Shown: positions 35,268 through 54,178, counted from the stretch's first letter. The stretch: 64,000 nt of DNA from Oscillospiraceae bacterium (GCA_045627405.1 JAZQNP010000092.1:23591-87590), one strand, 5' to 3'. The notes: a model not told the origin generated them from the sequence alone. Numbers and translations are program-made.

Positions 35268-35277
35268 GATGCCCTCC

Positions 35278-35871: not shown

Positions 35872-36539
35872 TGTGAACAGCCCCCTTTCGCAGCAGCGCA
35901 GGTATCCGCTAACGGACAGCCCTGACAACCGACAGTACGCGGTGCCTCGCGGTGTGCCAGCTTGCTGATGACTGCAATGACGCAGCCCAGAACAAAGAAT
36001 CCGCCGGGCGCAAGTGTCAGAACGGAAACCGAGTATTCTCCGGTAAGCGGAATGCCGAACCATGTACCGGCTCCGAGTATTTCGCGTAATGAGCCGACAA
36101 TCAGCAGCGATAGCGTAAATCCGACGCCCATTCCTGCACCGTCAAGTGCGGAACGAAGAACATTGTTTTTACAGGCGAACATCTCCGCTCTGCCGAGAAT
36201 AATGCAGTTCACGGTAATGAGAGATAAAAATGTTCCGAGTGCCGTATACAGCTCCGGCAGATAGCCGTGCATTAGAAATTCGATCAGCGTCACTAAGCCA
36301 GCAATAATGACAATGTATGCCGGCAGCTTCACTGATTTTGGAATGACTTTTCGCAGCGCGGAGATGACAACATTGGAGCCGATCAGGACAAATGTTGTGG
36401 CGAGACCCATGCCGAGTGCATTTTTTGCCTCCTGTGTGACGGCAAGCGTCGGACACATGCCGAGCAGCCCGACGAGATTTGGATTTTCACGCAGAATGCC
36501 TTTGGTGAATTCAGAGGACAGCGGTGTTTTATTTTCCAT
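35868..36539 (-). CDS. rnfE: Rnf complex subunit E
   Basis: Rnf-Nqr family (NPNLVGLLGMCPTLAVT ... ITVNCIILGRAE ... LREILGAGT). ATG 36539 is preceded by AGGAGG at an 8-nt spacing. Confidence 0.9.
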   Translation of the reverse strand: MENKTPLSSEFTKGILRENPNLVGLLGMCPTLAVTQEAKNALGMGLATTFVLIGSNVVISALRKVIPKSVKLPAYIVIIAGLVTLIEFLMHGYLPELYTALGTFLSLITVNCIILGRAEMFACKNNVLRSALDGAGMGVGFTLSLLIVGSLREILGAGTWFGIPLTGEYSVSVLTLAPGGFFVLGCVIAVISKLAHREAPRTVGCQGCPLADTCAAAKGGCSQ

Positions 36540-37050
36540 TTTTAATCGCCTCCTCATGTTCTATGTAGGTTCTGAGCGCGAGATCAACTGCATTCCGGAT
36601 GCCGGAAGAAGATTTTGTTGCACCGGAAACGGCATCGTATTCCGAACCGGGTGTGTTCCGCCCGATAAACTGCGAGAGAAACGCGTCTTGCTGCACTTTG
36701 TCAGCTTGTGTCGGAGAATCTTCAATCGAGACAATGCAGACACCGCTGACGCTGCCGCTGGAATCCAGTCCGATCAGGAGATGTTGACCGTCCTTTTCGT
36801 ATCCTGTCGATGTCACATCAAAAATGATGCGCCCTGCTGCATCTGTGATGACCTGATTGATGCCCTCAAAATTCTGTTCCAAAGGTGTGTAATCAGATTC
36901 TCCGAAGGCTTCTGTCAGGCTTTGCTGTAAGCGTTCTTCTTCTGCGGCGGCAATGGTATCTGCGGTCAGGTCGTTTGCAAATGCGAGCGCGCCGCAGACA
37001 AATGCGCAGATCAGTGTCAGTACTAGCGGTGCTTTGACGGCATCAGGCAT
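36529..37050 (-). CDS. rnfG: Rnf complex subunit G (FMN-binding)
   Basis: N-terminal TM helix and FMN_bind domain with flavinylation motif SGAT (AVSGATKSS). ATG 37050 is preceded by AGGAGG and overlaps the rnfD stop. Confidence 0.9.
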   Translation of the reverse strand: MPDAVKAPLVLTLICAFVCGALAFANDLTADTIAAAEEERLQQSLTEAFGESDYTPLEQNFEGINQVITDAAGRIIFDVTSTGYEKDGQHLLIGLDSSGSVSGVCIVSIEDSPTQADKVQQDAFLSQFIGRNTPGSEYDAVSGATKSSSGIRNAVDLALRTYIEHEEAIKNGK

Positions 37051-37969
37051 TGTTCTGCACCTCCTTTTTGGCAAGATCAGTGCCGAACGGTCTGCTTGCA
37101 GTTATCCGGTCAATATACGGTGTCAGAAGATTCATCAGCAGGATAGAGAACGAAACACCCTCCGGATACCCGCCGAACTGACGGATGACAAATGTCAGAC
37201 AGCCGCAGCCGATGCCAAACAGCAGCTTTCCTTTGGCAGTCAGCGGGGTGGTGACATAATCCGTTGCCATAAAGACAGCACCGAGCATCAGCCCGCCGGA
37301 GAGAACCTGTGAGAGCGGATTGTTTCCTGCAATCCATGTGCAGAGTGCAAAGCTGCCGATGAAACTGATCGGTGCAGCAGGGGAGATGATTCCGCGCAGA
37401 CAGAGATAGATTCCGCCGAGCAGCAGTCCGAGTGCGCAGGTTTCTCCGATGCAGCCGGCAGTATTGCCGAAAAGAAGATCCCAGTAGGTTTCCTCAGCAC
37501 CGGTCAGCGGCGTCGCTGAGGAAACTGCATCCGTGTGAGGAAACCGGAATGTTGTCATGGTCGAAGTGAACGAGAGCATCAGTACAATGCGTGCGACCAC
37601 TGTCGGATTTGCAAAATTTTGTCCCAAACCGCCGAAAAGCTGTTTTACGATTACGATTGCAACAAAGCTTCCGATTGCAGCCTGCCAATACGGAAGATCC
37701 GGCGGCAGATTCATGCCAAGCAGCAGACCGGTCACAGCCGCACTGAGATCACCGATCGTCTGCGGCCGCTTCATAAGAATGCGGCAGAGAAATTCAAATA
37801 AAACAGCAGAGCCGGTCGTTACGAGCAAGAGGATGAGCGCGCGCATACCAAAGTTCATACAGCCCGCCAGCGCGGCAGGGAGCAGTGCCAGCAGTACACA
37901 AAGCATAATATGCCATGTCGGAAGCGGCGCACGTTCATGCGGTGACGCTGCAACAAGCAACTGATTCAT
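37043..37969 (-). CDS. rnfD: Rnf complex subunit D
   Basis: NqrB/RnfD family: ASPH N-terminus, KQLFGGLGQNFANP, flavinylation motif DAVSSATPL, FMATDYVTTP. Confidence 0.92.
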   Translation of the reverse strand: MNQLLVAASPHERAPLPTWHIMLCVLLALLPAALAGCMNFGMRALILLLVTTGSAVLFEFLCRILMKRPQTIGDLSAAVTGLLLGMNLPPDLPYWQAAIGSFVAIVIVKQLFGGLGQNFANPTVVARIVLMLSFTSTMTTFRFPHTDAVSSATPLTGAEETYWDLLFGNTAGCIGETCALGLLLGGIYLCLRGIISPAAPISFIGSFALCTWIAGNNPLSQVLSGGLMLGAVFMATDYVTTPLTAKGKLLFGIGCGCLTFVIRQFGGYPEGVSFSILLMNLLTPYIDRITASRPFGTDLAKKEVQNNA

Positions 37970-37981
37970 CGCTGCACCTCC

Positions 37982-39259
37982 TTATGTTTTCGGTAACAGC
38001 TGTTTTGCCAGCTGATGTGATTCGGCAAGCGGACGTCTGGCAGGGCAGACATACGAACAGCATCCGCAGTTGATGCAGAGCCGGAGGTGATGGCTTTCCA
38101 ACGCGGCAATATCCTTCGTGCGAAATGCGCGTTCCAGCTCCATCGGCATCAGCTTCATGGGACAGGCTCTCATACATCTGCCGCAGCGAATACACGCAGA
38201 TGCTTTCTGTGTTTTTACGGTTTTCATTGCGAGCAGCCCGTTTTGCTGCTTGGTAACCGGCAGATCAAGCGAAAACAGAGAGACGCCCATCATCGGACCG
38301 CCGCTGAATAATTGCTTGACTGATTCTAAATCACATTCCGCGAATTTCAGCAGATCACGCAGCGGCGTACCGATCGGGACACGCAGATTGCAGGGCTTGT
38401 TGACTGCATCGCCGTCTACTGTCACAACACGTTCCACCAGCGGAATTCCCGTCTGACTGTAACGGTAAAGATAGGCACAGGTACTGATATTCAAAACAAT
38501 GACACCGATGTCGGCAGGAATCTTCCCTTCCGGAACCACTCTGCCGCAGGTGTGATAAATCAATACTTTTTCTGCGCCCTGCGGATAGACCGGCGGAAGC
38601 GGAACCACAGACACATCCACGAACTCCTTGCATGCCTCGGTAAGCTGCCGGATGGCAGCGGGTTTGTTGGATTCGATGCCGATACGAGTTTCTTTGATGT
38701 TAAGTAATTTCATCAGCAGACAAACCCCGCCGAGGATTTCTTCCGGTGCTTCGATCATCTGACGACAGTCGGTAGTCAGATACGGTTCGCATTCTGCGCC
38801 GTTTAAGATGAGCATATCAATCTTTTGTTTTGCATTGAGCTTGATATGTGTCGGAAAGCCGGCACCGCCCAGGCCGACACAGCCGGAAGCACGGACAGCG
38901 TTCAGCAGATCTTCTTTCGTCTCGATGACAGGTGCCGAACACATTGGAGAAAGTGTTTGTTTTCCGTCCGGTTCAATCTCGATACAGGGGACAAGCGCGC
39001 CGTTAATGGTCTGATACTGTGTGACAGCAGTGACTGTTCCGGAGACACTGGAATGAATCGGTGCAGAGAATTCGCCCTGCATCTCACCGATTTTTTCTCC
39101 GACCGTCACCGTATCGCGCTGTTTTACAATCGGTACGCACGGTGCGCCCATATGCATTTGCATCGGGATACGAACGAGTTTCGGCAGCGGGATGCACTCT
39201 GTCATCTTTGCTTCCGTATGCTTTCTATGCGGTAAATGGATCCCGTTCAATCGTTTCAT
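37982..39259 (-). CDS. rnfC: Rnf complex subunit C
   Basis: RnfC N-terminal domain, SLBB/NADH-binding block GLGGAGFPTH, and two 4Fe-4S motifs (CIRCGRCMRACP, CINCGCCSYVCP). RBS aaggagag. Confidence 0.92.
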   Translation of the reverse strand: MKRLNGIHLPHRKHTEAKMTECIPLPKLVRIPMQMHMGAPCVPIVKQRDTVTVGEKIGEMQGEFSAPIHSSVSGTVTAVTQYQTINGALVPCIEIEPDGKQTLSPMCSAPVIETKEDLLNAVRASGCVGLGGAGFPTHIKLNAKQKIDMLILNGAECEPYLTTDCRQMIEAPEEILGGVCLLMKLLNIKETRIGIESNKPAAIRQLTEACKEFVDVSVVPLPPVYPQGAEKVLIYHTCGRVVPEGKIPADIGVIVLNISTCAYLYRYSQTGIPLVERVVTVDGDAVNKPCNLRVPIGTPLRDLLKFAECDLESVKQLFSGGPMMGVSLFSLDLPVTKQQNGLLAMKTVKTQKASACIRCGRCMRACPMKLMPMELERAFRTKDIAALESHHLRLCINCGCCSYVCPARRPLAESHQLAKQLLPKT

Positions 39260-41459: not shown

Positions 41460-42188
41460 TTACACTCGATAACCCTGCTGACGAAGTTGATCAATCAGAT
41501 CACCGAGGATCTGTGTGTTTGTGGAAGAAACGGAATGCAGCAGGTAAATCGCGCCGCCGTGTGCCATATCGCTGAGAGAAGCGAGTGCCGTGGCAGGATC
41601 CGGTTGATCGTCCGTTTTCCAATCGACATGGGCAGCACTCCAAAAAACGGTCTGATAACCAAGCTGCTGCACCACAGACAGCGAATGCTCATCGTATTCT
41701 CCGCAAGGCGGACGGAAATACTGCATCTCATATCCGTAACGGTCAAGCACATATTGGTGCAGGCCCATGATCTCCTCTTCCAGCTCGTCATCACTGAGCG
41801 TCGGGATCGCAGCGTGCGTCATACCGTGATTTCCCAGCATATGCCCTTCGTCAATCATCCTTTGTACCAGTTCCGGTTCACGCTTTGCATAATCGCCGGT
41901 GAGGAAAAACATCGCATGTGCGTCTTTTTCCTTTAAGGTATCCAGAATCTGTGCGGTATATCCGTTTTCATAGCCCTGATCAAATGTCAGCAAAATTTGT
42001 GTGCTGTCGCCGCCGAAAGCGTATGCGCCGAGTTCGCTGTATTGTTCCTGAAACTGTACAGCACCTGTCGGACGGTTCTCGGCATCTTTCTCGATGCCCT
42101 GACCGTATCCTGCTGCCGATGCTGGAACAGCCGGTATTTGTGACAGCATCAAAGCTGCACCGCAGCACACAGAAAGCAGTTGCTTCAT
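41460..42188 (-). CDS. pdaA: Polysaccharide deacetylase, PdaA-like (delta-lactam biosynthetic de-N-acetylase family)
   Basis: NodB-domain blocks LTFDQGYENGYT, FFLTGDY, EGHMLGNHGMTH and YFRPPCGEY. Signal peptide. Assignment to PdaA specifically, rather than a generic CE4, is tentative. Confidence 0.65.
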   Translation of the reverse strand: MKQLLSVCCGAALMLSQIPAVPASAAGYGQGIEKDAENRPTGAVQFQEQYSELGAYAFGGDSTQILLTFDQGYENGYTAQILDTLKEKDAHAMFFLTGDYAKREPELVQRMIDEGHMLGNHGMTHAAIPTLSDDELEEEIMGLHQYVLDRYGYEMQYFRPPCGEYDEHSLSVVQQLGYQTVFWSAAHVDWKTDDQPDPATALASLSDMAHGGAIYLLHSVSSTNTQILGDLIDQLRQQGYRV

Positions 42189-42260
42189 GCAGATCATCCT
42201 TTGCAAATGATTCATTGCGGGCGTGTTCCCGCATAAATAGGATGTGCATGAGAAAAGAGC

Positions 42261-42803
42261 TTATCCGCGGGAATCCGTGCCGCTTCTCTGTGCATCCAAT
42301 TCCGCTTTTTCATATAGATAACGGAAATGATAACCTGCCCATACAAAAATGCCGGTTGCAGCGGAAGGAAGTGCCATAAGGATTTGTCTTGTCTGAGAGA
42401 GTGCGGAAAACGGATCCGCACCGTTCAGAATCAGGCGGTGAAGCTGAATATACGGTGCATTCAGCAGCAAAAATACATTGAGCATGAGGCTGCTGCTTTG
42501 GTTACATTTCAGAATCACCCAGAGCAAAAACACCGGAATTGCTGTTTCGATACCGAGCAAAATCGGTTTGAGCGGTGATGTTTTGATCCTTGTTGTGCGA
42601 TATGCAGAAATATCTTCCAGTGCAGATTTGGAAGCGCAGTCAGCCATCAGCAGCGCGTGCGCAAGGACGCCGCACGCAAGACTGAGCCATCGAATCCATT
42701 CAGCGGATATAATCGCAAAAGAAAAAGCCAGAATCAGGCATAATATTTCCGATACCACGAGCCATGCCAGACAGCGCAGGTAATGTTTTCCGAAATGCAG
42801 CAT
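42261..42803 (-). CDS. Hypothetical polytopic membrane protein
   Basis: About 5 hydrophobic segments. Start is chosen at the ATG preceded by GGAGGAAG. No recognisable motif. Confidence 0.5.
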   Translation of the reverse strand: MLHFGKHYLRCLAWLVVSEILCLILAFSFAIISAEWIRWLSLACGVLAHALLMADCASKSALEDISAYRTTRIKTSPLKPILLGIETAIPVFLLWVILKCNQSSSLMLNVFLLLNAPYIQLHRLILNGADPFSALSQTRQILMALPSAATGIFVWAGYHFRYLYEKAELDAQRSGTDSRG

Positions 42804-42935
42804 ACTTCCTCCGTATTTTGATGATGAAGTGTGCATACGACGATATGTATGCATCTATATTATACATGATTTTCACAGGAATGTCCAGTCTGTTTCAGAG
42901 AAATTAGAAACTTTTTGCATCGGTGCGCAGAATGC

Positions 42936-42999: not shown

Positions 43000-43650
43000 A
43001 TGACTACGATTTCAGCGTCCATTCTCAATGCAGATCTGACGAATCTTGCAAATGCTGCGGCGGTGGTCGAACAAGCCGGTGCAGACCTTCTGCATTACGA
43101 TGTGATGGACGGCTGCTTTGTAGATAATATTTCGTTTGGTTTGCCTGTGCTGAATGCGCTGCGTAGCTGCACCGCCCTGCCGATTGACGCGCATCTGATG
43201 ATTCGGGAGCCGCTGCGGTTCGTGGAACGCTTTGTCAAGGCGGGGGCTGATTTGCTTTCATTTCATATTGAAAGTGACTCGGATGCTGCTGAGACAATCC
43301 GGGAGATTCATGCATGCGGCATTCATGCCGGTGTAGCACTTTCTCCTGACACGCCGACAGAAGCTGTTTTCCCGCTGCTCAAATTGCTGCAACCGGAGGA
43401 TTTTATACTGCTGATGACCGTGCAGCCGGGACTGGGCGGTCAGGCTTTTTTGCCGTATGTGCTTCCGAAAATAGAAACACTGTATCAGCGCATTCAAGCC
43501 GAGCAGTTACCCCTGCACATCGAAGTGGACGGCGGTATTGCTGCCGGGACCGGAAAACAGTGCAGGGAAGCCGGCGCAGATTATCTGGTTTCCGGATCCT
43601 ATATTTTCCGTGCAGCCGATCCGCATGCTGCTGTGCAGTCGCTTCGCTAA
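43000..43650 (+). CDS. rpe: Ribulose-phosphate 3-epimerase
   Basis: Blocks SILNADL, LHYDVMDG.FV.NISFG, DAHLM, MTV.PG.GGQ.F and VDGGI. RBS caggagg. Confidence 0.92.
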   Translation: MTTISASILNADLTNLANAAAVVEQAGADLLHYDVMDGCFVDNISFGLPVLNALRSCTALPIDAHLMIREPLRFVERFVKAGADLLSFHIESDSDAAETIREIHACGIHAGVALSPDTPTEAVFPLLKLLQPEDFILLMTVQPGLGGQAFLPYVLPKIETLYQRIQAEQLPLHIEVDGGIAAGTGKQCREAGADYLVSGSYIFRAADPHAAVQSLR

Positions 43651-44219
43651 GTCGCAGCGGCGGCATTTGCGACTGCTGACACCGCATCGGTTTCGTAAAC
43701 GCATTTGCCGTATTCTGATAATCTTGCTTTGTTGAGTGCTGAGCTTCGATAGGGCTTGCCGTATTCTAAAAGCAGATGATGTGCGCGGGAGGCACCGTTT
43801 CGGTTCAGTTTCAGAGATAAGATCCACTGTGCATCAAATTGATGCAGAGAGCTGCTGATGATATGCGACTGTTCCTGCATCAGTTGTCTGCAACAGGCAG
43901 ATAATACTTTGTAATCAGAGAATCTTGCTGCCAGTCTGACGGTTTTGGACGGATGCTTATGCTGCTTTGTTTGACCGGAGATCTGTGCTGTAAAATACGC
44001 AATCAGCCCGCCGTCGGAAACAGCGATCAGCTCGACGGTGACGGGTAGTTCCGAAAAGCGGATCCCACTGGCTGCTTCTGCATGCATCAGCATATATGCG
44101 AGCAGACGCAGCATCTGCGGAGAATCTGCGGGGGGAGTTTCTCCGTGCAGAAAGAATTGCAGCTCATCCGCAGTGAGCTGCACTTTTACCGATCTTGCGG
44201 AGAGCTGTGTGACTGTCAT
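43647..44219 (-). CDS. mecA: Short MecA-like adaptor protein
   Basis: N-terminus M.V..LS..SVKV.LT..EL and a C-terminal duplicated EYGK pattern (LLLEYGKP ... LSEYGKCVYETDAVSAV). Both resemble the MecA ends (LEYGE...SEYGK...A...). By-eye match only. Confidence 0.5.
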   Translation of the reverse strand: MTVTQLSARSVKVQLTADELQFFLHGETPPADSPQMLRLLAYMLMHAEAASGIRFSELPVTVELIAVSDGGLIAYFTAQISGQTKQHKHPSKTVRLAARFSDYKVLSACCRQLMQEQSHIISSSLHQFDAQWILSLKLNRNGASRAHHLLLEYGKPYRSSALNKARLSEYGKCVYETDAVSAVANAAAAT

Positions 44220-44275: not shown

Positions 44276-45217
44276 ATGAAAGAAAAATCAAAGACGGCCG
44301 GAAGCATTGAGCGTACCGTAACGCTTGCAGCACTGATTTGTATAGCGGTATACGATTACGGGATCCGCATTCTGATTCTGTGTGCTGCTGCTGTTTTTGC
44401 ATCTGTTCTGACCGAACTGGTTTGTCTGTATGTTCGCCGGATTCCGTTTCGTCTCCGGCATTTAGACGCTGCTGTCTGCGGATTGATTCTGGTCATGATG
44501 ATGCCGCAGACGGTTTCTGTCTCACTCGTTATCATGTCCGCGATTTTTGCAATTATCATCGGAAGACAGATGTTCGGCGGACGGGAACATTCGGTAATTC
44601 CTGCTGCTGCGGTCGGTTATTGCTTTGCACTGCTGAATCAGCGTGCGCAAATGACTTTATTTCCCGCAGAAAAAGCCATTCTTCCGTTTGAAAATATCCC
44701 TGTCGATTCTCTGGTTCCAGGCGTTTCTGTCATCTGGAATCAATCCGGTGATTTCAGCAGCAATGTGTCTGATTATCTGCTTGGACTGCCTTCTCAGCCG
44801 ATCGGCACAAGCTCTTTGCTTTTACTTGCAGTGATTGCTGTTGTTCTGATCTTTCGCCGTTCTGCATCGGCTTGGGTGATGCTTCCGATGCTGATTGTAC
44901 TGCTGACAGGAAATCTGGCTCTTAGCAATTTTCATAATCCTGCCATTATTTTTGCCGGCAGTTGTCTGACAAATCAGACGCTGTTTAGTGTGATATATCT
45001 GTACAGCGATCCTGATTTTGCGCCGCCGCATATTGCAGGCGCACTTTATGGCGTGTTATCAGCCTTGTTGATTCTTGTGTTCACGCGTGTTTTCGCTGTA
45101 TTTGATGCGCCTGTTCTTCTGGCAGTGATTCTCTCTCCGCTTCCGCTCGGATTGCGTTCAATCCATTTGGAATCCAACAAACAAAGCCGGAAAGGGGATA
45201 TTGCACATGCCGAATGA
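44276..45217 (+). CDS. RnfD/NqrB-family paralog lacking the flavinylation motif
   Basis: Alignable with the window's rnfD. GIRILIL..VLTELVC...LDAAVCGLIL...AIIIGRQMFGG matches GMRALIL..VLFEFLC...LSAAVTGLLL...AIVIVKQLFGG. Where rnfD has DAVSSATPL, this protein has DSLVPGVSV. The start is uncertain (GTG 44237, ATG 44252 or ATG 44276). Confidence 0.75.
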   Translation: MKEKSKTAGSIERTVTLAALICIAVYDYGIRILILCAAAVFASVLTELVCLYVRRIPFRLRHLDAAVCGLILVMMMPQTVSVSLVIMSAIFAIIIGRQMFGGREHSVIPAAAVGYCFALLNQRAQMTLFPAEKAILPFENIPVDSLVPGVSVIWNQSGDFSSNVSDYLLGLPSQPIGTSSLLLLAVIAVVLIFRRSASAWVMLPMLIVLLTGNLALSNFHNPAIIFAGSCLTNQTLFSVIYLYSDPDFAPPHIAGALYGVLSALLILVFTRVFAVFDAPVLLAVILSPLPLGLRSIHLESNKQSRKGDIAHAE

Positions 45218-45827
45218 GCGTCCCCGTATTTACGGAACCGCGTTCTTGTTCCGAAAGAATCTGATCCTGTCCGAGGCGTTGATTGCCGCACCGACGGCTG
45301 CATGTGCCGATACCATTGCGCACGCGCTGATGCTATGCTTTGTGTTTGCCTGCGTATCCGGCTTAACAATCTTGCTGTCATCATTTTTTCCACGGCGTAT
45401 GCCTTATGCGTTTCGTATTCTATCCTATTCTCTCATAGCGGCTTTGGTGTATATCCCGACGAAACTTGCAGCAGATTTTTTGTTTGCCGATACAGACGCT
45501 GCCGGGCTGTATTTGCCGCTGTTGTCATTTGGTATTTTACTGACCGCACAGCATGACCAGTTGTTTCGTGCGGAACGCCTGTCCAAAATGCTCGGCCGTC
45601 TGATCTGTGCGATTGCAGGCGCATGTGCAGTGATTCTTCTGATGGGCGTTTTACGCGAATTGTTCGGCGCGGGGACATTATACGGTTACATGATTTTCTC
45701 TGTGCCGCCGCTGCCTGCCATGCTGACGCCTGCATTTGGGATGGTCATGCTGGCTTGTTTCTGTGCGCTTGCGCAGGCGATATGTCAGACCGAGCGAAAG
45801 GAGGCAGCTGATGATTCCGATCGCTGA
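45207..45827 (+). CDS. RnfE/NqrD-like (Rnf-Nqr family) paralog lacking the conserved Cys pair
   Basis: Shares LRELFGAGT (rnfE has LREILGAGT) and the overall 6-TM layout. The positions of GMCPTL and VNCIIL read AAPTAA and FGILLT. ATG 45207 is preceded by aaagggga and overlaps the upstream gene by 11 nt. Confidence 0.7.
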   Translation: MPNERPRIYGTAFLFRKNLILSEALIAAPTAACADTIAHALMLCFVFACVSGLTILLSSFFPRRMPYAFRILSYSLIAALVYIPTKLAADFLFADTDAAGLYLPLLSFGILLTAQHDQLFRAERLSKMLGRLICAIAGACAVILLMGVLRELFGAGTLYGYMIFSVPPLPAMLTPAFGMVMLACFCALAQAICQTERKEAADDSDR

Positions 45828-46383
45828 ATTACTTTTAATCCTGACGCAGAATATCGTTTTCAGCTACGCGCTAGGAATTCCGAATATTGCAAAATCCGCT
45901 GTGCAAAGACGAATGCTGCTGCTTTCCGGTTTATTGGTTGCGATATTTGTGACGTTGAACAGCGTTTTGCTCGCACTGATCCGCCCGCTTCTTTCGCAGA
46001 CAGATACGACTTTGATATTGCCGCTTTGCTGTGTAGCTTTGAACGGCGTTCTCGATCTGATTCTGTTGATTCTGATTGCTGCCGTCGGCGGTATGCGCGC
46101 ACGCACGCTGATTCCGCATCTGCATGCGACAGCGTTCTCCGGTGCTGTGCTGGGTTCACTTCTGCTGAGTTACAATGCCGCGAACACGCCGCTGCTTGCA
46201 GCAAAAAACGGACTCCGCTGCGGTCTGGGATATTTTCTGGTCTGCTGCATGCTGGTGCTGGCTGCACCTGCACTCCACAGTGAAAAGATGCCTGCTGCCG
46301 TGCGCGGCTGGCGCGGAATGTTTCTCTATATCGGCGTCATAGCAATGGCGGTTGCATGTATTTCCGCCGGCTTGGAAAGTTAA
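45811..46383 (+). CDS. RnfA/NqrE-like (Rnf-Nqr family) paralog
   Basis: N-terminus LLLILTQNIVFSYALGIPNI versus rnfA LSAILTDNFVLSKFMGCCPFL. ILPLCCVALNGV versus LPLITTNCAVLGV. ATG 45811 is preceded by AGGAGG and overlaps the upstream gene by 17 nt. Confidence 0.7.
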   Translation: MIPIAELLLILTQNIVFSYALGIPNIAKSAVQRRMLLLSGLLVAIFVTLNSVLLALIRPLLSQTDTTLILPLCCVALNGVLDLILLILIAAVGGMRARTLIPHLHATAFSGAVLGSLLLSYNAANTPLLAAKNGLRCGLGYFLVCCMLVLAAPALHSEKMPAAVRGWRGMFLYIGVIAMAVACISAGLES

Positions 46384-46395
46384 AACAGAAAGAAG

Positions 46396-47658
46396 GTGCG
46401 TCCTTTGCTGCATAGACGAAAAGGAAGAAAAATCTACACTTATCGCGTAAAAAATCGCCGGGTATTCAGCAAAAATCATCCGATGCGATCTGCATTCGGG
46501 CTCATCCTGACACTTGTGCTTGCAGCATTTGCCGGTATCGTCGGATACAGCGTGATTGCACCGGTCTATGAACGGTTAACGGCTGAGGCACAATCTCCGA
46601 CAACTGTGCCGGAACCTTTTGATGCATCTGCGGTTGCAGACTCCGTATCGGGTTTGACACAGACTTCAAAGACTTCCGTTTCTGCTGAAATGACAATGCA
46701 GACAACAACCACGACAACTGCAACGCAGCTGTCATTTGATGAAGATACTATGCTCATATACTGTGTATCAGAGGATGACATGACTGATCTTTCCGCATTG
46801 GAGCAGACAGCTGTTTCCGCATCCAATCTCGGTTATACTGCGCTGGCATTCCCCTTAAAAATTGTTGGCGGCACGCTGACATACGCCTCGGCGGTTGATG
46901 CTGCAAATATATCGGGTGCGACGCAGGAGGATTATCTGACACTTGCGCAAATCACCGATCTTGCCAATGAAAACGGTTTGGAGTGTATGGCGTTTTTTGA
47001 CATGCTGAATGATCAGACATACCCTGCGGTCTATCAGGACGGTGCGTACACGATTGCCGATTCCGGTCTGCGCTGGCTGGATATGTCATTTGAAGGCGGC
47101 GGAAAACCCTGGATGTCTCCGTTTTCTCCGCAGGCGCAATCCTATCTCTTATCACTCGCCGAAGAGATCTCAAACAGCGGATTCACAAAGCTGTTCTGTA
47201 CGGATCTGATTTTTCCGAATTTTTATGATTCTGACGTGTCCTATATCGGTGACAGTGTATCCAATCCTGCGCAGCGCGCAAATGCGCTGGCATCTGTGCT
47301 GAACGGCATTGCGGAATCTGTTTCCGGAACTGTATACACTTTTGATTTTATGGAAGCTGTGAACGGTAGTGTTGAAGTGCTGGATTCCGATTCTCTCAAT
47401 GCGGATACATTCTGCGTACGTTTCGATCTGACAGCGGAAACCGATTCTTTTTCATGGAACGAAACATCATATGTTTTTACCGGAAAAACCGCATCGGAAA
47501 AATCTGCGGAGCTTTTTCAGATTGCAAAAGAAATTTCAGGCGAGCGCACACTGTATCCGTGTGTAGTGAAAAGCGGTATGACAGACGAAGAACTGTCTGC
47601 TGTATTAGAAGTGTTTTATGATGCCGGATGCAGAACAATTCTCGTATCCGTAACCTGA
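46396..47658 (+). CDS. Membrane-anchored extracytoplasmic protein with a DUF4015-like (putative glycoside-hydrolase TIM barrel) domain
   Basis: Basic N-terminus plus a TM helix (FGLILTLVLAAFAGIVGY) and a T-rich linker. The block KPWMSPFSPQAQSYLLSLAEEISNSGFTKLFCTDLIFPNF resembles the DUF4015 core as I remember it. Starts 12 nt after the RnfA-like gene. The start is uncertain (GTG 46396 or ATG 46483). Confidence 0.5.
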   Translation: MRPLLHRRKGRKIYTYRVKNRRVFSKNHPMRSAFGLILTLVLAAFAGIVGYSVIAPVYERLTAEAQSPTTVPEPFDASAVADSVSGLTQTSKTSVSAEMTMQTTTTTTATQLSFDEDTMLIYCVSEDDMTDLSALEQTAVSASNLGYTALAFPLKIVGGTLTYASAVDAANISGATQEDYLTLAQITDLANENGLECMAFFDMLNDQTYPAVYQDGAYTIADSGLRWLDMSFEGGGKPWMSPFSPQAQSYLLSLAEEISNSGFTKLFCTDLIFPNFYDSDVSYIGDSVSNPAQRANALASVLNGIAESVSGTVYTFDFMEAVNGSVEVLDSDSLNADTFCVRFDLTAETDSFSWNETSYVFTGKTASEKSAELFQIAKEISGERTLYPCVVKSGMTDEELSAVLEVFYDAGCRTILVSVT

Positions 47659-47662
47659 ATGT

Positions 47663-47711
47663 AAAGCGCAGATGTGACTATATTGTCGCAGATGCGCTTT
47701 GTTGTTTTTTT
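47663..47711 (+). terminator. Rho-independent terminator ending the Rnf-paralog operon
   Basis: 16-nt imperfect stem aaagcgcagatgtgac / gtcgcagatgcgcttt followed by gttgttttttt. Confidence 0.75.
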
Positions 47712-47809
47712 GCGCTGAAATCAATTATTTCACAGACTATTCATTCTTTTCACTGCGATTTATGCTATAATATATGTAACATTTGGTATTGACGGAGGTG
47801 CATTTCATT

Positions 47810-50800
47810 ATGAAACGAATCGTTCGGAAACATATTGCTTGTATCACAGCAGTCGCTTTGCTGGCTGTCGGCAGCACAAACACATTGCCGGTACTGTCGC
47901 CGGCGGGCAGTATGGCGGCAACGGATTCCATTCTGGACTTTGCAAATAGGCTGACAGCGCAATCTGTACAGAACCCGTCGTGCTTTGCGGCTCTTCGCTT
48001 TGCGACAGACGAACAGGTTTTTTACCGCGATGATACGGCTGTCGGAACCGAATATGATGCGTTCAGCGTGATCAACGGCAAAGTCATGGTGAAAAAAGCT
48101 GCGACATTGACATCTGCCGAACGCCAAAACGAGGGTGCTTCGGACGGATATATTCCTTTTGATGACGCTGCTGAAAAAATCGGATGTGAGATCACGGAGC
48201 AGAACGGCGATTATATTGTGGTCTCGCCGTTTCAATCTGCCGCGCTGATCGTGCGGTCTAACGGCGCAGTGCCGGCATACGGTGCTGTCAGTGAAACAGA
48301 CGGCTATCAGAATTTGCATGTGATGCAGTATAGTACTGCGGCGGATGCTTATGCTGCGTACAGGTGCTATCTGACAGATCAGACGGTTGATTATGTTGAA
48401 CCCAATCGCACGCTGTATCTTGCATCTGCGGCTGAACCGCAGTTTATCAGAGTGAATGATCGCTGGGGTCTGGATGCAATCGGCGCAGATGAATACCGCA
48501 GTTGGCTTTATTCTGTCAAAACTAATCTGCCGGAAATTGTGGTTGCTGTGATAGATACCGGTATTTATCAGGAACACAGTTGGTTTGAAAACCGCATTGC
48601 AGAGGGCGGAACCGGTTTTACATATGATGAAAAGGGGAGCTATGAGGACGGTCACGGACACGGTACACACTGTGCCGGCATCATTTGCTCTTCTACTCTG
48701 GATAATGTGAAGATTCTTCCGATCAAATGCCTGAGTGATGAAGGATACGGCTCCACCATGGAAGTATACTGTGCGATGATGTATGCGGCAGAACAGCAGC
48801 CGGATGTGATCAGCATGAGTCTTGGCGGAATCGGTATTTCTCCGCTGCTTTCAGATGCATGTGCGGTATTTGCTGAGAATGATATTCCCTGTGCAGTGGC
48901 TGCCGGAAACGAGTCAATTGATACGATGTATGCACATCCCGCGAGCGTGGATTCTGTTTTTACGGTTTCCGCAGTTGGCAATGATTCATATGACGGCTCC
49001 TCAGATTTATATGGTGAGGATGCGTATTCACTTGCTTATTTCAGCAATTTAGGCTCAAAGGTTGATTTTTGTGCGCCGGGTGTCGATATTGAAAGTGCCG
49101 GTATCGACGATCCGAACAGCACAACCTATAAGAGTGGTACGAGCATGGCAACACCTTATGTTGCCGGATGTATTGCGGATTTGCTGTCTTATGACGACAC
49201 CTTCACCTCGGATGAGATTTATCAGCTTTTGAAGCAGTTTGCATATGATCTTGGTACTGCGGGCTATGATGAATCCTATGGCTGGGGCATGGTTCGGCTT
49301 TTTGCAATGAGTGAAGACGGAAAATTCTGCGCTGCACCGACTGCCTCTCTGGTGTCCGGCTCCTATGACGGAGTACAGTCTGTGGCGCTTTCCTGTCCGA
49401 CTGAAAATGCCGACATCTATTACACGCTTGACGGCACTGTACCGACAGCGGAAAGCGGAATTCTGTATGACGGTAACTCTATCAGCATTGAAGCATCGTG
49501 TGAGCTGCGTGCAATCGCAGTGTTCGGCGGTACATCGAGTACAGTAATTTCGCGGCAATATGAGATTCTCTGTAAACCTCCGGTGATTACACCGGTCAGC
49601 GGGCAATATGAAGATTCTGTGACGGTGTCCATTTCCTGCGTCTCCAATGATGCGAAGATTTATTACACATTGGACGGTTCAACGCCGTCAGCGAAAAACG
49701 GCACGCTGTATTCCGATCCGTTTACGGTTTCAGAATCTGCTGTTCTGCGGGCTGTTGCAGTTTCCGGAAAGGCAGAAAGTGAAATCACGCGTGCTGATTA
49801 CTGCATAAACGGCGAGGAAATCTCCGATCCCTATGTCATCATAGACGGTGTGCTGGTTGCTTATAACGGCGTCGCATCCGTATTGGATCTGTCTGATTTG
49901 TACATTACCGCCGTCGGTGACAATGCATTCACCGGCAACAGACTGCTTACGAAGATCATACTCCCAGACAACGTTGCCAAACTAGGTGCAAATGCGTTTC
50001 AAGGCTGTGAAGCCTTGGAATTCGTCACAGCTGCCGGCGTCACAGAGCTTGGGACAGGTGTGTTCAGCGGTTGTACTGAACTGTACCAAATTCTGACCGG
50101 AGCTGTGCAGGAAATTCCGGATTACGCATTTTACCTTTGTGGCAATCTATCTCAAACAGAGGATTGCTTTATCCATGTGACATCCGTTGGCGACTATGCC
50201 TTCTACGAATGTGACTGGCTGGGCTCATCCGGTCTGGATTGGACACAAATTCAATCCATCGGTGACTATGCGTTCAGCTATGCATGGTTCTATGATGATG
50301 TCTCGCTCGATTCTCTGGAACATCTTGGCATACATGTGTTTGATAATGCCTACGGGTTTAGCAATATCTCACTGCCGAATTCGCTCACTGTTCTTCCGGA
50401 AGGTACATTCCGGAACTGTAATAATCTCACATCATTATCTGCACCGGGAATCATTGAGATCGGGGATTATGCAATGGCATTCAGTTCATACGAACCACTC
50501 GACACCGGCACGCTGTTTTCGCAGATTACAAAGATCGGCAGCTATGCATTTTCTGATTTTAATTTCAACGGATCGGTTGAGTTTACCAATGTCACAGACA
50601 TTGCGGAAAACGCATTTTCATATGCTGAGGCAGATTCGATGTCTTTCCCAGCGTTGCAGCATACAGGTCATAATGCATTTGCGAACGCATACTCCGATGT
50701 GTTATACTTAGAGCATATTGAGACAATCGCTGAAAACACATTTTCTTCGTATTCTCCTTATATTGTGGTAGTCGGTGACGAGCTGACTGAGATGGATGTG

Positions 50801-53800
50801 AATGCAGCATCGAACTACTGGCAGATGACACTTGCAGGACCGGCGGTTTCTCCCGCAAGGACTTTTGCAAATTCTCATTTGCTTACCTACTATGAAACAC
50901 CCGGTGTCTATCTTGACACAGAAGGTGAATCGCTGACATTGCAGCAATATGATCCGCAAACAATCGCGGCGTACCCACTCGGTTTCGGTCTGTCTCTGGA
51001 ATGGTACAGCGCAGCAGATGAGAACGGTGCAGATCCGGTCTATCTGCAATCTGCCAATGCACTGGAAATCAATGTGATGGAGAGCAGAACCTATTATTAC
51101 TATGCTGCTGTATACAAAGACGGCGCAGAAGTCGCACGGTCCAATGTGCTTCGTCTTGAAGTCATTCCGACGGAAATCATCGGTACTCTGAGTGAAAAAG
51201 ACCAGATGACGCTGATTGACTGGGATCAATATGAAAGCGGAGCGATAGCATATCAGTTTTCACCTGAGACAGCGGATTATTATTATTTCGAGGCTCACGG
51301 ATTCTCTGCGGATATTACCGTATTGGATCAGTATGGCTCTGTACAAAGGTACTACGCAACCGCTTATGTTGAACCGGGAGATGTCTATACCGTACTCATC
51401 AGAAAGTCCGGTTCAGAGCGATGGAATGCACTGTATATCTCAGATACATATATTTCCAACTATTTTGACGGTGAAATCACACTGGATGCGGATGTTTATC
51501 AGTATACAGGCAGTGCAATCGAGCCACCGGTATCTGTTATCTATAATCATGAATATTATGACAATGATACTTGGGAGTATGTCGAGGAGCAAATCACTCT
51601 GACAGAAGGCACAGATTATATTGTTCGTTATGATAATAATATTGATCCCGGAACTGCCTATGCATTTGTGTTCTGCATGGGGGATTACACATCGTTCTCA
51701 TATAGCACATTTAAGATTTATAGGCCGATTTTGGAGGATACGCCAGAATCTGTATATGATTTCACATACGGCAAAATTCCGTATTTTTGCTTTGAACCGG
51801 AGGAAACCGACGAATATCTGATCTATACCGAATATGCAGACGATCTGACAGAGCGGTTTGAAAGCGAAAGCAACTCATCCTATTATACTGATACAATCCT
51901 GACGATCTATGATTCTGATTGGAATGAAATCGGTTATAATGATGACGGCGGACAACTGCTGTTCTCTGCGATTTGGCTTGACCTCGAAGCAGGACAGAGG
52001 TATTATGTTGTACTCGACGCATGGAGCAGTTCGGAATCTGCGAGCGTATGCATTTCCAGAAAAACTCATCTCGGCATAGAGGGGTATCTGGAAGCAAGTA
52101 TATATAATTATGTTTATACCGGTGAGGCGATTGAACCGGAGTACAAATTCTATGTAGACGATGTCCTCTTAACAGAGGGAACCGATTATACAGCCCGCAT
52201 TTTTCACAATGTAAATCCCGGCTCAATGACTTTGATCGTAATTGGTCAGGGCAGCTATTGCGGCATGTACGTTTTTACAGAATTCTCCATTTCTATTGAT
52301 TTTGATGAATTGGATGACACGGTGATTGAAATTGAACCGGATGTGCCGTTTACGCTGAGCGAGCTGCGGCAGATTTATTCGCTCAATATTCCAAGCATCG
52401 GTTTGTATTGTCTGCGTCCGACCGATGCAGACGATGAAGCGGATTACTGCGGCGAGTGCTACACATACTACTATGATGGGATGTATGAAAGCTGGTACTG
52501 TACAACAAAATTCACTCCTGAGTATCCGGAATACGAATTGTACCCGGGTATGTATTATCTGATTCTCACACAAGATGCAACAGAAGAGCGCGAATTCATT
52601 CTTGAAACAGTTGAAGCATACCGGTCACTGTATTATGCAGATGTGACGGTAACAGATGCTGTTTACACCGGTGAACTGATTGTTCCGAAGGTAACCGTTA
52701 TTTACGAAGGCACTGAATTGACGGAAAATGTGGACTACATTGTGTCTTGCAATCAGCCGATGATTACATGCGGTTATTATACTCTTATCATTCAAGGAAT
52801 CGGTGAATACTACGGTAATGCTTACGCATATTTCCAAATTGTACCCGATCTTTCTGCCGAAATGCAAATACTGACGGAAGAAACAAACACTGTTACGGCA
52901 AATACAGGAGGAGAAACGGCATTTTACAGCTGGATACCGGATGAATCGCAGTATTGTCTATGGAAAGATCAACTGGAATATACAACGATTTCTGTATATG
53001 ATTCTGACATGCAGATCATCGAATACAATGATGGAATCGGTCTGATTTATACCGAAGTATATGTGGAACCGGGAAATCAATATTATATTTCAGCGGCGTT
53101 TGCCGACAGAACCATGACGGGCAGCTTTGATTTCACTCTGACTTCCGATTACGCTCTGCTGGATTATTGTGAAGTAGATACAGAGAACCTTCTGGCGTAC
53201 CAAGAAAATGCGCAGGTTCCGGATTACACAGTGAGGAACGGAGACACTGTTCTGACAGAGGGCGTCGATTATGAGGTGTTTTATCTCGGCGGAAATGATG
53301 ATTATGGCAGAGCAGAAATCTGTTTCAAAGGGAAAGGGCATTATATCGGCTATCTGGATTTCAGTTTTTACATTTATCCCGATCACTGGAACGATGTGAT
53401 TCCGGATCAGCAGATTGATTTGGCTGCGGAAGAAACCGTATTCACGGAACGCGGCTTGCCGGGAGCTGTAACGCTGTATACCTTTACAGCAGATCATGAT
53501 GCAACATATTATTTGAATCTTCCGAATACAGACAGTGCAGCAGTTACAGCATTTGTTTACGGCACAGACGGATTCATCTGCCCGCTCAGTCAGCATACAT
53601 TTGAACTGAAAGCCGGAGACACGATTCAGATTCTTTGCATGACTGACTGGCTGGAAACGAGCTATGATATTTACGACATGTACTCTGTTCAGGTAACTGA
53701 ATCCGCACCGATCGAATATTATTGGACAGAAAACGGACTCTGCTACTATCTCGAAAACGGTCTTGCGTATCTTCTCTATGTGGATGATATGATGCTTGAA

Positions 53801-54178
53801 ACCGGCTTCTATATTCCCGATGTTATTTATGATCCGGAAGGTGGAATACAGGGTACTTTTGCCGGAATCGGTGAAGAACTCTACCGGCATCTTGCATTTA
53901 CAAATACCATCTACTGCGAACAGGGCGGACTTGTTGCGGATTACTGTTCGGAAAACGGATATTGCTATGCGTTTACTGACCCGCAGACAACACTTGCCGG
54001 TGATGTCACAGGCGACGGCTTGGTCAATCAAAATGATGCATGGACGCTGCTGCGCTGGATGACTGAGGCGAGCGGCATGCAGATGACTGAACAAGGATAT
54101 GCAAACGCCGATATCAACGGCGATGGCATTGCCGACATGCTGGACGTCAATCAGATTCTCAGATACACAGCTTCATAA
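47810..54178 (+). CDS. Giant secreted subtilisin-like (S8) serine protease with Fn3-associated/CHB_HEX_C-like repeats, BspA-type leucine-rich repeats, an alternating beta-module array and a C-terminal dockerin
   Basis: Signal peptide. Catalytic triad contexts are VAVIDTGI (Asp codon 48554-48556), HGHGTHCAG (His codon 48659-48661) and SGTSMATPYVAG (Ser codon 49142-49144). Two IYYTLDG(T/S) repeats. LRR region with repeated IGDYAF/AF..C..L units. Dockerin GDVTGDGLVNQNDAWTLLRWM...ADINGDGIADMLDVNQILRY. A tgc-tataat -10 lies at 47766-47771. Confidence 0.85.
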   Translation: MKRIVRKHIACITAVALLAVGSTNTLPVLSPAGSMAATDSILDFANRLTAQSVQNPSCFAALRFATDEQVFYRDDTAVGTEYDAFSVINGKVMVKKAATLTSAERQNEGASDGYIPFDDAAEKIGCEITEQNGDYIVVSPFQSAALIVRSNGAVPAYGAVSETDGYQNLHVMQYSTAADAYAAYRCYLTDQTVDYVEPNRTLYLASAAEPQFIRVNDRWGLDAIGADEYRSWLYSVKTNLPEIVVAVIDTGIYQEHSWFENRIAEGGTGFTYDEKGSYEDGHGHGTHCAGIICSSTLDNVKILPIKCLSDEGYGSTMEVYCAMMYAAEQQPDVISMSLGGIGISPLLSDACAVFAENDIPCAVAAGNESIDTMYAHPASVDSVFTVSAVGNDSYDGSSDLYGEDAYSLAYFSNLGSKVDFCAPGVDIESAGIDDPNSTTYKSGTSMATPYVAGCIADLLSYDDTFTSDEIYQLLKQFAYDLGTAGYDESYGWGMVRLFAMSEDGKFCAAPTASLVSGSYDGVQSVALSCPTENADIYYTLDGTVPTAESGILYDGNSISIEASCELRAIAVFGGTSSTVISRQYEILCKPPVITPVSGQYEDSVTVSISCVSNDAKIYYTLDGSTPSAKNGTLYSDPFTVSESAVLRAVAVSGKAESEITRADYCINGEEISDPYVIIDGVLVAYNGVASVLDLSDLYITAVGDNAFTGNRLLTKIILPDNVAKLGANAFQGCEALEFVTAAGVTELGTGVFSGCTELYQILTGAVQEIPDYAFYLCGNLSQTEDCFIHVTSVGDYAFYECDWLGSSGLDWTQIQSIGDYAFSYAWFYDDVSLDSLEHLGIHVFDNAYGFSNISLPNSLTVLPEGTFRNCNNLTSLSAPGIIEIGDYAMAFSSYEPLDTGTLFSQITKIGSYAFSDFNFNGSVEFTNVTDIAENAFSYAEADSMSFPALQHTGHNAFANAYSDVLYLEHIETIAENTFSSYSPYIVVVGDELTEMDVNAASNYWQMTLAGPAVSPARTFANSHLLTYYETPGVYLDTEGESLTLQQYDPQTIAAYPLGFGLSLEWYSAADENGADPVYLQSANALEINVMESRTYYYYAAVYKDGAEVARSNVLRLEVIPTEIIGTLSEKDQMTLIDWDQYESGAIAYQFSPETADYYYFEAHGFSADITVLDQYGSVQRYYATAYVEPGDVYTVLIRKSGSERWNALYISDTYISNYFDGEITLDADVYQYTGSAIEPPVSVIYNHEYYDNDTWEYVEEQITLTEGTDYIVRYDNNIDPGTAYAFVFCMGDYTSFSYSTFKIYRPILEDTPESVYDFTYGKIPYFCFEPEETDEYLIYTEYADDLTERFESESNSSYYTDTILTIYDSDWNEIGYNDDGGQLLFSAIWLDLEAGQRYYVVLDAWSSSESASVCISRKTHLGIEGYLEASIYNYVYTGEAIEPEYKFYVDDVLLTEGTDYTARIFHNVNPGSMTLIVIGQGSYCGMYVFTEFSISIDFDELDDTVIEIEPDVPFTLSELRQIYSLNIPSIGLYCLRPTDADDEADYCGECYTYYYDGMYESWYCTTKFTPEYPEYELYPGMYYLILTQDATEEREFILETVEAYRSLYYADVTVTDAVYTGELIVPKVTVIYEGTELTENVDYIVSCNQPMITCGYYTLIIQGIGEYYGNAYAYFQIVPDLSAEMQILTEETNTVTANTGGETAFYSWIPDESQYCLWKDQLEYTTISVYDSDMQIIEYNDGIGLIYTEVYVEPGNQYYISAAFADRTMTGSFDFTLTSDYALLDYCEVDTENLLAYQENAQVPDYTVRNGDTVLTEGVDYEVFYLGGNDDYGRAEICFKGKGHYIGYLDFSFYIYPDHWNDVIPDQQIDLAAEETVFTERGLPGAVTLYTFTADHDATYYLNLPNTDSAAVTAFVYGTDGFICPLSQHTFELKAGDTIQILCMTDWLETSYDIYDMYSVQVTESAPIEYYWTENGLCYYLENGLAYLLYVDDMMLETGFYIPDVIYDPEGGIQGTFAGIGEELYRHLAFTNTIYCEQGGLVADYCSENGYCYAFTDPQTTLAGDVTGDGLVNQNDAWTLLRWMTEASGMQMTEQGYANADINGDGIADMLDVNQILRYTAS

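Follow-up and report, generated by a model that had tools for sequence, protein, structure and literature searches.

Does a second set of rnfD-, rnfE- and rnfA-like genes amount to a second Rnf complex? The question is raised by an Oscillospiraceae bacterium in which a 64,000-nucleotide stretch of DNA (GCA_045627405.1 JAZQNP010000092.1:23591-87590; hereafter the window) carries a canonical rnfCDGEAB operon and, ~7 kb away, a four-gene unit here called D'E'A'H. Three of its genes (D', E' and A') encode membrane proteins resembling RnfD, RnfE and RnfA, and the fourth (H) encodes a protein of the DUF4015 family. A first-pass annotation, made from the sequence alone, proposed that the triad is an Rnf/Nqr membrane core put to a non-redox role and tied to the glycan-hydrolase-like protein encoded downstream. 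Our analysis agrees in substance: the set of Cys ligands needed for the Rnf iron-sulfur centre is absent family-wide, and the sequences predict that D'E'A'H very probably has a role other than respiration. More specifically, and tentatively, we read the unit as a redox-dead, Rnf-derived ion-path or conformational module with a putative extracytoplasmic envelope-glycan hydrolase, and not as a second Rnf.

Homology and cofactor sites of the triad

The resemblance of the first three open reading frames (ORFs) to the nearby rnfD, rnfE and rnfA, originally noticed by eye, is borne out by profile searches. D' matches Pfam PF03116 at 1e-32 (114 bits) and E' matches PF02508 at 4e-13 (50 bits). A' reaches 23.4 bits against PF02508, 0.4 bit below the gathering score of 23.8, and hhalign pairs the A' family with the RnfA of the window at a probability of 99.1%. 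Together with the fold of D', these matches place the triad in the PF03116/PF02508 superfamilies. By BLASTP, D' shares 30% identity with the canonical RnfD across 103 amino acids (aa) and E' shares 24% with RnfE; A' has no significant match to RnfA by this method, and profile methods were used instead. The closest structure to D' in the PDB is A. woodii RnfD (9eri_D, 3.5e-8). Likewise, in the AlphaFold2 (AF2) model of P0027, a natural D'-E' fusion, the D' part has TM scores of 0.72-0.79 to RnfD chains, with NqrB next.

The NCBIfam models that recognise Rnf subunits give far lower scores for the triad than for the canonical proteins. D' scores 55 bits against TIGR01946 (rnfD; cut-off 207) and E' scores 25.6 bits against TIGR01948 (rnfE; cut-off 213), with the nqrD, RsxE and rnfE models all far under cut-off for E'. 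The window's A' matches no NCBIfam model, TIGR01943 (rnfA) included; its relatives score 58-98 bits against TIGR01943. The window's canonical RnfD, RnfE and RnfA score 294, 241 and 230 bits, above the cut-offs. These comparisons identify D', E' and A' as ancient paralogs of RnfD, RnfE and RnfA, not recent copies. Their origin is traced to Rnf and not to Nqr because the relatives of E' best match rnfE/RsxE and those of D' best match rnfD, with Nqr models scoring lower. No NqrA, NqrC or NqrF gene is present in the unit, which thus falls outside Na+-NQR.

In the Rnf complex of A. woodii, the RnfA/E pair carries the AE1 [2Fe-2S] centre together with an alternating-access Na+ path, and electrons pass through RnfB, AE1 and the flavin mononucleotide (FMN) of RnfG (PMC11889175). 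The Rnf structures compared here were 9ERI (A. woodii), 7ZC6 (C. tetanomorphum) and 8AHX (A. vinelandii). In alignments, the window's triad has none of the four Cys ligands of AE1 (0/4): GMCPTL and VNCIIL of RnfE correspond to AAPTAA and SFGILL in E', and GCCPFL and TNCAVL (TTNCAVL) of RnfA correspond to LGIPNI and AFSGAVL in A'. The first-pass annotation had counted three of the four as lost. The loss itself stands and the count does not: LCCVAL, taken for the second site of A', was misaligned and belongs to another helix, the true counterpart being AFSGAVL. The canonical operon of the window keeps its own motifs intact (DAVSSATPL in RnfD, GMCPTL/VNCIIL in RnfE, GCCPFL/TNCAVL in RnfA).

The same loss extends through the family. 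The relatives include loci from Allofournierella (L023), Faecalibacterium (L026) and a low-GC lineage (L024/25), as well as divergent metagenomic loci (L006, L007). Cys is found at either ligand site of E' in 0/22 sequences spanning all lineages. Among representatives of A' clusters formed at 50% identity, site 1 is Cys in 3/138 and site 2 in about 55%. On these alignments, a four-Cys centre is impossible in any family member.

The flavin site has also changed. RnfD of A. woodii binds FMN covalently at T156, in addition to riboflavin (PMC11889175). Opposite the canonical DAVSSATPL, D' reads DSLVPGVSV, the acceptor Thr being aligned by HMMER with the Val of DSLV, and on this alignment the window's D' no longer has the canonical S-x-A-T motif for flavinylation. 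The pattern [ST][GSAT]A[TS] is missing from the flavinylation loop in 20/22 D' sequences, the exceptions being L011 (TSGAT) and L024 (TAAS); L030, which lies outside this 22-sequence scan, keeps KSAT within FVKSATAQM. The window's clade has also lost the Asn that contacts riboflavin (NP motif). The earlier claim that DSLVPGVSV replaces the motif therefore holds for the motif and not for flavin as such: D' may still be flavinylated, because a Ser/Thr four residues downstream of the lost acceptor (G-[VLI]-S) is kept in about 20/22 sequences and ApbE accepts Ser, as documented elsewhere (PMC8238504). The TSGAT of L011 (= P0011; D' residues ~148-152) is a perfect [S/T]GA[S/T], where the nearest relatives have TSGVS; it could be a chance match, or a flavin site retained or regained.

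Some residues of the ion path remain under constraint. In A. woodii RnfE, the pair R67-E115 gates Na+ binding (PMC11889175). A basic residue (R/K) occupies the R67 equivalent in 21/22 E' sequences, an acidic residue lies at or beside the E115 equivalent in most of the 22, and the RELLGxGT loop (RELxGxGT; LREILGAGT in RnfE) is kept throughout. In the window's E', the two residues are R72 and D119. This Arg/acid pair governs the Na+ site in RnfE, and the E'/A' cation path is likely retained. A further feature is seen in E' of L023, L026 and L007 (LVVEPLI) and of L029 (LVVSEVI), where an in-helix Glu lies at or beside the site at which the second Cys/Asn of RnfE has been lost. Embedded in the membrane, its carboxylate could act as a cation ligand; the window's clade lacks this Glu.

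Conservation and descent of the unit

A word search recovered 38 relatives of D', all of them PF03116 proteins. The order D'-E'-A'-DUF4015 is kept at every locus long enough to judge, amounting to more than 20 independent loci: about 17 Oscillospiraceae/Ruminococcus loci from metagenome-assembled genomes, L006 and L007, as well as L023, L026, L024/25, L027/28, L029, L030 and L031. No RnfG or RnfB gene is found in the unit at any of the more than 20 loci, and an RnfC-like gene (C') is found in L029 and L030 only. The neighbourhood comparison thus shows the four genes staying linked across deep divergence, and the linkage of the DUF4015 gene in every lineage examined lends weight to the proposed tie between the triad and the downstream hydrolase-like protein. 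When a profile of A' was searched against 1.84 billion representatives, it recovered 190 clusters (50% identity) with a limit of E<=1e-30 and 1527 when this was relaxed to E<=1e-10. The named members are all from Oscillospiraceae and are annotated "Rnf-Nqr domain containing protein" or "RnfA".

Two variations on this arrangement were seen. In one clade, a gene for an SdpI-family membrane protein stands between A' and the DUF4015 gene (L004 10102-10464; L005 2813-3175). P0110, a protein of 323 aa from a 7.5-kb ENA contig, combines the C-terminal half of an E' with an entire A'. Because RnfE and RnfA are oppositely oriented in the membrane, such a fusion would be unusual in its topology if genuine; read-through or faulty assembly may explain it.

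Extreme divergence from the canonical genes and lost cofactor ligands are also what functionless, decaying duplicates of rnfD, rnfE and rnfA would display. We nevertheless regard decay as ruled out, because the ORFs are intact and translationally coupled, with family-specific motifs. Intact, coupled ORFs with ribosome-binding sites (RBSs) and conserved family motifs are found at every locus, and the natural fusion, the about 190 diverged clusters and the gene order kept across genera point the same way. In sum, of the outcomes that would have counted against the first-pass proposal, none was found: the Cys and Thr are not conserved, C, G and B genes are not always present, and the genes are intact.

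The canonical rnfCDGEAB operon lies in the same window and the same genomes, which invites the idea that D'E'A' is a swap-in module that borrows RnfC, RnfG and RnfB from ~7 kb away to form a second Rnf isoform. The published listing of the triad as an rnf operon (PMC10781979) is in line with this. The missing Cys residues, however, preclude an AE1 [2Fe-2S] centre, and the path from RnfB through AE1 to RnfG-FMN cannot run without it. The proximity of the two operons is moreover clade-specific: the canonical rnf is close to the unit in the window and L001, and is not within 8 kb in L002, L004, L023, L024 or L026. The invariant partner of the triad is DUF4015, not C, G or B. We therefore consider this explanation highly improbable.

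The path by which the unit arose can be followed in living intermediates. In L030, the gene order is mecA(-), C', D', E', A', DUF4015. Its C' (696-2237, 513 aa) has an RnfC_N domain and both 4Fe-4S Cys motifs and scores 207 bits against rnfC (cut-off 246), and its NADH/FMN motif GLGGAGFPT now reads DSLSGKPLN. D' of L030 is near-canonical (212 bits against TIGR01946), and E' and A' have already lost the Cys and diverged (47 and 72 bits). The C' of L029 (5347-6411) is truncated to 354 aa, with the first ~150 residues missing, and scores 118 bits. No C' is found in the Faecalibacterium-type, L024-type and window-clade units. A graded series is seen for D' against TIGR01946, from the canonical RnfD (294 bits) through L030 (212), L029 (185), L023 (134) and L024 (120) to the window (55). 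The earlier description of the triad as lacking a C subunit is therefore right for the window, and L029 and L030 are exceptions in carrying a degenerate RnfC upstream.

This pattern indicates that duplication of an rnf operon gave rise to the unit by the route rnfCDGEAB -> C'D'E'A'H -> D'E'A'H. RnfG, RnfB and the four-Cys [2Fe-2S] ligand set are, on the sequences compared, lost family-wide, and DUF4015 is kept in every lineage examined; the window's clade has additionally lost RnfC and the canonical RnfD flavinylation motif. The intermediates place the loss of the AE1 cluster and the recruitment of DUF4015 early, and the loss of the C'-D' electron wire late. A comparable history has been proposed for Na+-NQR, namely rnf duplication followed by subunit loss, with NqrA having lost its FMN/NAD and Fe-S sites (PMC4014512). 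The likeness lies in cofactor loss from the RnfC homolog of an rnf duplicate, as in L030 C', where GLGGAGFPT is lost. The outcomes differ: Na+-NQR recruited NqrF and remains a redox pump in which NqrC, the flavins and the [2Fe-2S] Cys are retained, whereas D'E'A'H lost these and recruited a glycosidase-like protein.

The basal forms also bear on a further alternative, in which the unit is a residual one-way electron wire that runs from C', where present, through the flavins of a D' flavinylated on its conserved Ser to the outer face of the membrane, where it would serve some redox-dependent process tied to H or the envelope. L030 combines a C' that keeps two 4Fe-4S motifs with a D' that keeps FVKSATAQM at 212 bits, the loop Ser/Thr of D' is conserved (with TSGAT in L011), and Ser acceptors for ApbE are documented (PMC8238504). 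In Rnf, RnfC and RnfD form a flavin/FeS route from cytoplasm to periplasm (PMC11889175). This reading is plausible for L030-type forms, but very unlikely for the unit in general. Both C' and [S/T]GA[S/T] are lacking from most loci, those of the window, Faecalibacterium and Allofournierella included, and the window's clade has lost the riboflavin-contacting Asn. Even where C' is present, it has no GLGGAGFPT motif, and no FMN-binding or redox partner is encoded to act outside the membrane.

No description of a D'E'A'-DUF4015 system was found in the literature beyond one listing of rnfDEA. In F. duncaniae, the locus is given as a "putative rnf operon (rnfDEA)", one of two putative rnf operons, and is not analysed (PMC10781979); no match to its locus tags was found in the supplements of that paper. 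The earlier statement that no described system has this composition is thus upheld apart from this single listing. Compared with Rnf itself, the unit has homologous D, E and A subunits in the same gene order, the RnfD fold, the RnfE R67/E115 pair and, in basal forms, an RnfC-like gene. It differs in having no RnfG or RnfB, an RnfC that is absent or degenerate, 0/4 Cys, a flavinylation motif lost in most lineages, scores far under the NCBIfam cut-offs, and an obligatory DUF4015 partner never found with Rnf. By its subunits (six in Rnf), its Cys residues (four in Rnf), its flavinylation motif and its NCBIfam scores alike, the unit falls outside Rnf.

Partial derivatives of Rnf and Nqr have been described before. 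In the "NQR/RNF-like" systems of Meheust et al. 2021, NqrB/RnfD is fused to the NAD-binding domain of NqrF in clusters with ApbE and FMN-binding genes; these systems occur in Actinobacteria and the candidate phyla radiation and are predicted to be one-way electron conduits (PMC8238504). D'E'A'H resembles them in being a partial Rnf/Nqr derivative around a PF03116 protein. In contrast, D' is a single-domain protein with no PF00175/NqrF part, the unit contains no ApbE or FMN_bind gene, and it has E' and A' along with the DUF4015 partner.

The DUF4015 partner and the function of the unit

H matches PF13200 (DUF4015) at 28.8 bits (cut-off 27) over profile positions 32-181 of 313, and its L029 ortholog matches at 132 bits over positions 1-310. 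All three Pfam searches proposed for this locus have returned their families, with A' falling marginally short. In H, a conserved basic tail in the cytoplasm leads into a single transmembrane helix, and a disordered, Thr-rich linker connects the helix to a barrel outside the cytoplasm. Its AF2 model (predicted local confidence, pLDDT, of 84) has a helix at 29-66, disorder at 78-107 and the barrel at 119-418, where pLDDT is above 90. Little or no variation was seen in any lineage at D206, W227, D229, GGK (235-237), Y250 and E257, and the conserved Asp and Glu point to predicted catalysis. Within the clade, the tail (KKGRKIYTYRVKNRRVFS..HPMRS; residues 1-55, 46396-46560) is conserved above most of the catalytic domain, and the juxtamembrane segment also ranks among the best-conserved parts. 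Such conservation of tail and juxtamembrane segment fits docking to a membrane partner. The gene calls differ at this end: in the NCBI call (P0159, 292 aa), a start further downstream leaves out tail and transmembrane helix, both of which are part of the JGI call (P0349, 420 aa). The idea that this helix is a relic of the RnfG anchor found no evidence, BLASTP giving only a 17-residue hydrophobic match (E = 0.035).

Foldseek matches of the barrel are Cthe_0052, Cwp19 (5OQ2), GH66, GH20, PelA GH166, GH36 and TM1410. Cwp19 of C. difficile (5OQ2/5OQ3) and the glycoside-hydrolase-like barrels (PelA GH166, GH66, GH36, TM1410) resemble H at Foldseek E values of 1e-9 to 1e-7, and share with it acidic residues at barrel positions and an extracytoplasmic location. 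Identity is only 10-16%, and H belongs to DUF4015, not to GHL10. Cwp19 is anchored to the S-layer, whereas H is a member of a membrane-complex operon. No characterised DUF4015 member with a substrate was found in the literature. DUF4015 has been noted in fusion with a YkyA domain that partners a peptidoglycan deacetylase (PMC12700454).

On the reading that we tentatively favour, D', E' and A' would assemble like the RnfD/E/A core. H, through its N-terminal tail and transmembrane helix, would stand where Rnf has a subunit anchored by one helix, for instance RnfG, which in A. woodii is positioned over the RnfA/E cavity (PMC11889175), and its TIM barrel would lie over the outer face of E'/A'. Cation binding or conduction by the E'/A' pair would persist, as would its switching between inward- and outward-facing states, now powered by an ion gradient or the membrane potential and not by electrons. 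This switching, or plain scaffolding, would control or position the hydrolase-like domain of H, whose target would be a cell-envelope glycan, for example peptidoglycan, a secondary wall polysaccharide or an exopolysaccharide. A housekeeping role in the envelope is argued from the presence of the unit in Faecalibacterium, which does not sporulate. A sporulation-specific role had been considered from mecA, the CE4 deacetylase and spoIIGA/sigE near L024, and was rejected as a general account, since the Faecalibacterium and Allofournierella loci have no such neighbours.

Several points weigh against this account. Cation conduction, a joint complex with H and the substrate assigned to H are predictions throughout, and a common regulon, in place of physical coupling, could account for the linkage to H. 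In the AF2 model of the P0027 fusion, only D' is confident; the E' part has a pLDDT of about 50 and its packing is unsupported. In the region of the Na+ site, RnfA E88 is not conserved in A', and N112 is retained across the wider family but has become Ser in the clade of the window. Some flavin chemistry is possible in D', whose flavinylation loop has a conserved Ser and which still carries the Asp that contacts riboflavin (DP motif). In addition, two 4Fe-4S motifs survive in C' of the basal forms, so electrons may have been required by the ancestral system.

Two other accounts also dispense with electron transfer. RnfD and NqrB share the fold of Amt, Rh and urea channels, and D'E'A' might accordingly be a solute transporter or channel for a small molecule or oligosaccharide handled by H, giving a hydrolase-plus-permease unit. 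The D' model from P0027 matches Rh, urea-transporter and Amt channels, if weakly (TM about 0.3-0.4), and the linkage to a secreted-type glycosidase is tight. Alternating access is established for RnfA/E, but RnfD is reported as an electron-transfer subunit only, with no channel (PMC11889175). Transport of organic solutes is known for no Rnf/Nqr homolog, and no conserved sugar-kinase or catabolic genes lie beside the unit. We judge a transporter unlikely.

Rather less likely still is a passive scaffold, chaperone or anchor for H that moves neither ions nor solutes, the Rnf fold surviving purely as a platform for docking. It would suit the loss of all redox ligands, the strongly conserved transmembrane helix and tail of H, and the state of the window's clade, the most degenerate of all (D' at 55 bits against TIGR01946, A' with no NCBIfam match). 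Three polytopic proteins of about 700 aa in total, kept in about 190 clusters, seem excessive for an anchor, however, and the gating Arg/acid pair and the RELLGxGT loop are still constrained.

Returning to the favoured module, a functional parallel is FtsEX, a transporter-derived membrane complex that has lost its ancestral transport and controls an extracytoplasmic wall hydrolase. FtsEX is built on an ABC ATPase and D'E'A'H on an Rnf-type ion path; fold and energy source are unrelated, and the likeness is a functional analogy, supported here by gene linkage only. A sharper version of our reading, in which the ion-motive force acts through the RnfA/E-type pair to toggle a DUF4015 hydrolase docked at the RnfG position, is speculative and, as a complete mechanism, unlikely. 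If true, FtsEX would have an ion-driven counterpart, and the Rnf/Nqr ion path a natural "redox-free" model. Such an ion-driven hydrolase switch would also couple membrane energisation to the remodelling of cell wall or exopolysaccharide in Oscillospiraceae, including Faecalibacterium.

Some consequences are independent of this mechanism. Annotation should be corrected, in that Faecalibacterium and its relatives are not bearers of "two Rnf complexes"; their rnfDEA is predicted to be incapable of the Rnf electron path. The living intermediates show a respiratory ion pump being dismantled and re-used, a third fate of rnf genes beside Rnf and Na+-NQR. For DUF4015, the unit provides a first strong functional context. 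An RnfA/E pair without a [2Fe-2S] centre offers a natural system for ion handling by the scaffold alone, which bears on the debated coupling of Rnf and Nqr. In Oscillospiraceae, a dominant family of the human and ruminant gut, the unit resembles part of the core genome.

Genomic setting of the locus

The features of the locus are collected in Table 1. The four genes form a tight plus-strand unit, as first described: D' and E' overlap by 11 nucleotides (nt), E' and A' by 17 nt, and a 12-nt gap separates A' from H. A Shine-Dalgarno-like sequence precedes every start. The terminator hairpin (47662-47701) folds with a free energy of -23.3 kcal/mol (z = -3.7), which 0/200 shuffled sequences equalled. 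D', E', A' and H are one operon of translationally coupled genes. No homolog of rnfC, rnfG or rnfB adjoins the unit in the window, in agreement with the first reading. A promoter scan found no sigma-70-like site on the plus strand of the 56-bp spacer between mecA and D', and the promoter of the unit probably lies within mecA or upstream of it. No Rfam family reached its gathering score in the whole window (1-64000), and none thus marks a riboswitch or other RNA element upstream of the unit.

Table 1. Features of the D'E'A'H locus and its surroundings, numbered from the first nucleotide of the window.
Feature	Position	Strand	Description
D'	44276-45217	+	RnfD-like polytopic membrane protein, 313 aa; ATG after AAGGTGGTG
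E'	45207-45827	+	RnfE-like membrane protein, 206 aa; RBS AAAGGGGA
A'	45811-46383	+	RnfA-like membrane protein, 190 aa; RBS AAAGGAGG
H	46396-47658	+	DUF4015-type TIM-barrel protein, membrane-anchored, 420 aa
Intrinsic terminator	47662-47711	+	Hairpin followed by U-run, end of the D'E'A'H operon
MecA-like adaptor gene	43647-44219	-	Divergent from D'; PF05389 at 3e-13
rpe	43000-43650	+	Ribulose-phosphate 3-epimerase; PF00834 at 1e-63; just upstream of the unit and the MecA-like gene
Canonical rnfCDGEAB	34464-39259	-	Complete operon in the same 64-kb window
PAS-domain protein gene	31164-34397	+	1077 aa; convergent with rnfB, ending beside the rnfB 3' end
CE4 polysaccharide deacetylase gene	41460-42215	-	With signal peptide
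Membrane protein gene	42261-42854	-	Unannotated
Dockerin protein gene	47783-54178	+	Secreted protein of 2131 aa, directly downstream of the unit

The most constant upstream neighbour of the unit is rpe, which is present in L001, L003, L004, L006, L007, L023, L024, L026, L028 and L029. In several relatives it lies directly 5' of D' on the same strand, with a 4-nt overlap in L006. The product of the divergent MecA-like gene reported upstream of D' matches PF05389 over profile positions 122-220 only, and its NCBIfam matches are far under cut-off; a full-length MecA has an N-terminal substrate-binding and a C-terminal ClpC-binding domain. A gene of this kind has the same position and orientation in L001, L004/5, L024/25, L028 (weak) and L030 (there upstream of C'), and is absent beside the unit in L023, L026 and L029. 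This neighbour may be linked to regulated proteolysis.

The CE4 deacetylase and the unannotated membrane protein are both encoded in L001 and L004 as well, and in L029 a CE4 gene lies downstream of the unit. No recognised output domain was found in the 1077-aa PAS-domain protein (Pfam, E<=1e-3). The 2131-aa protein encoded downstream combines a subtilase (S8), CHB_HEX_C/Fn3_assoc, BspA-type LRR_5 and a C-terminal dockerin, and its gene is syntenic in L001 and L004; the host is therefore probably a cellulosome-bearing, ruminococcus-like bacterium.

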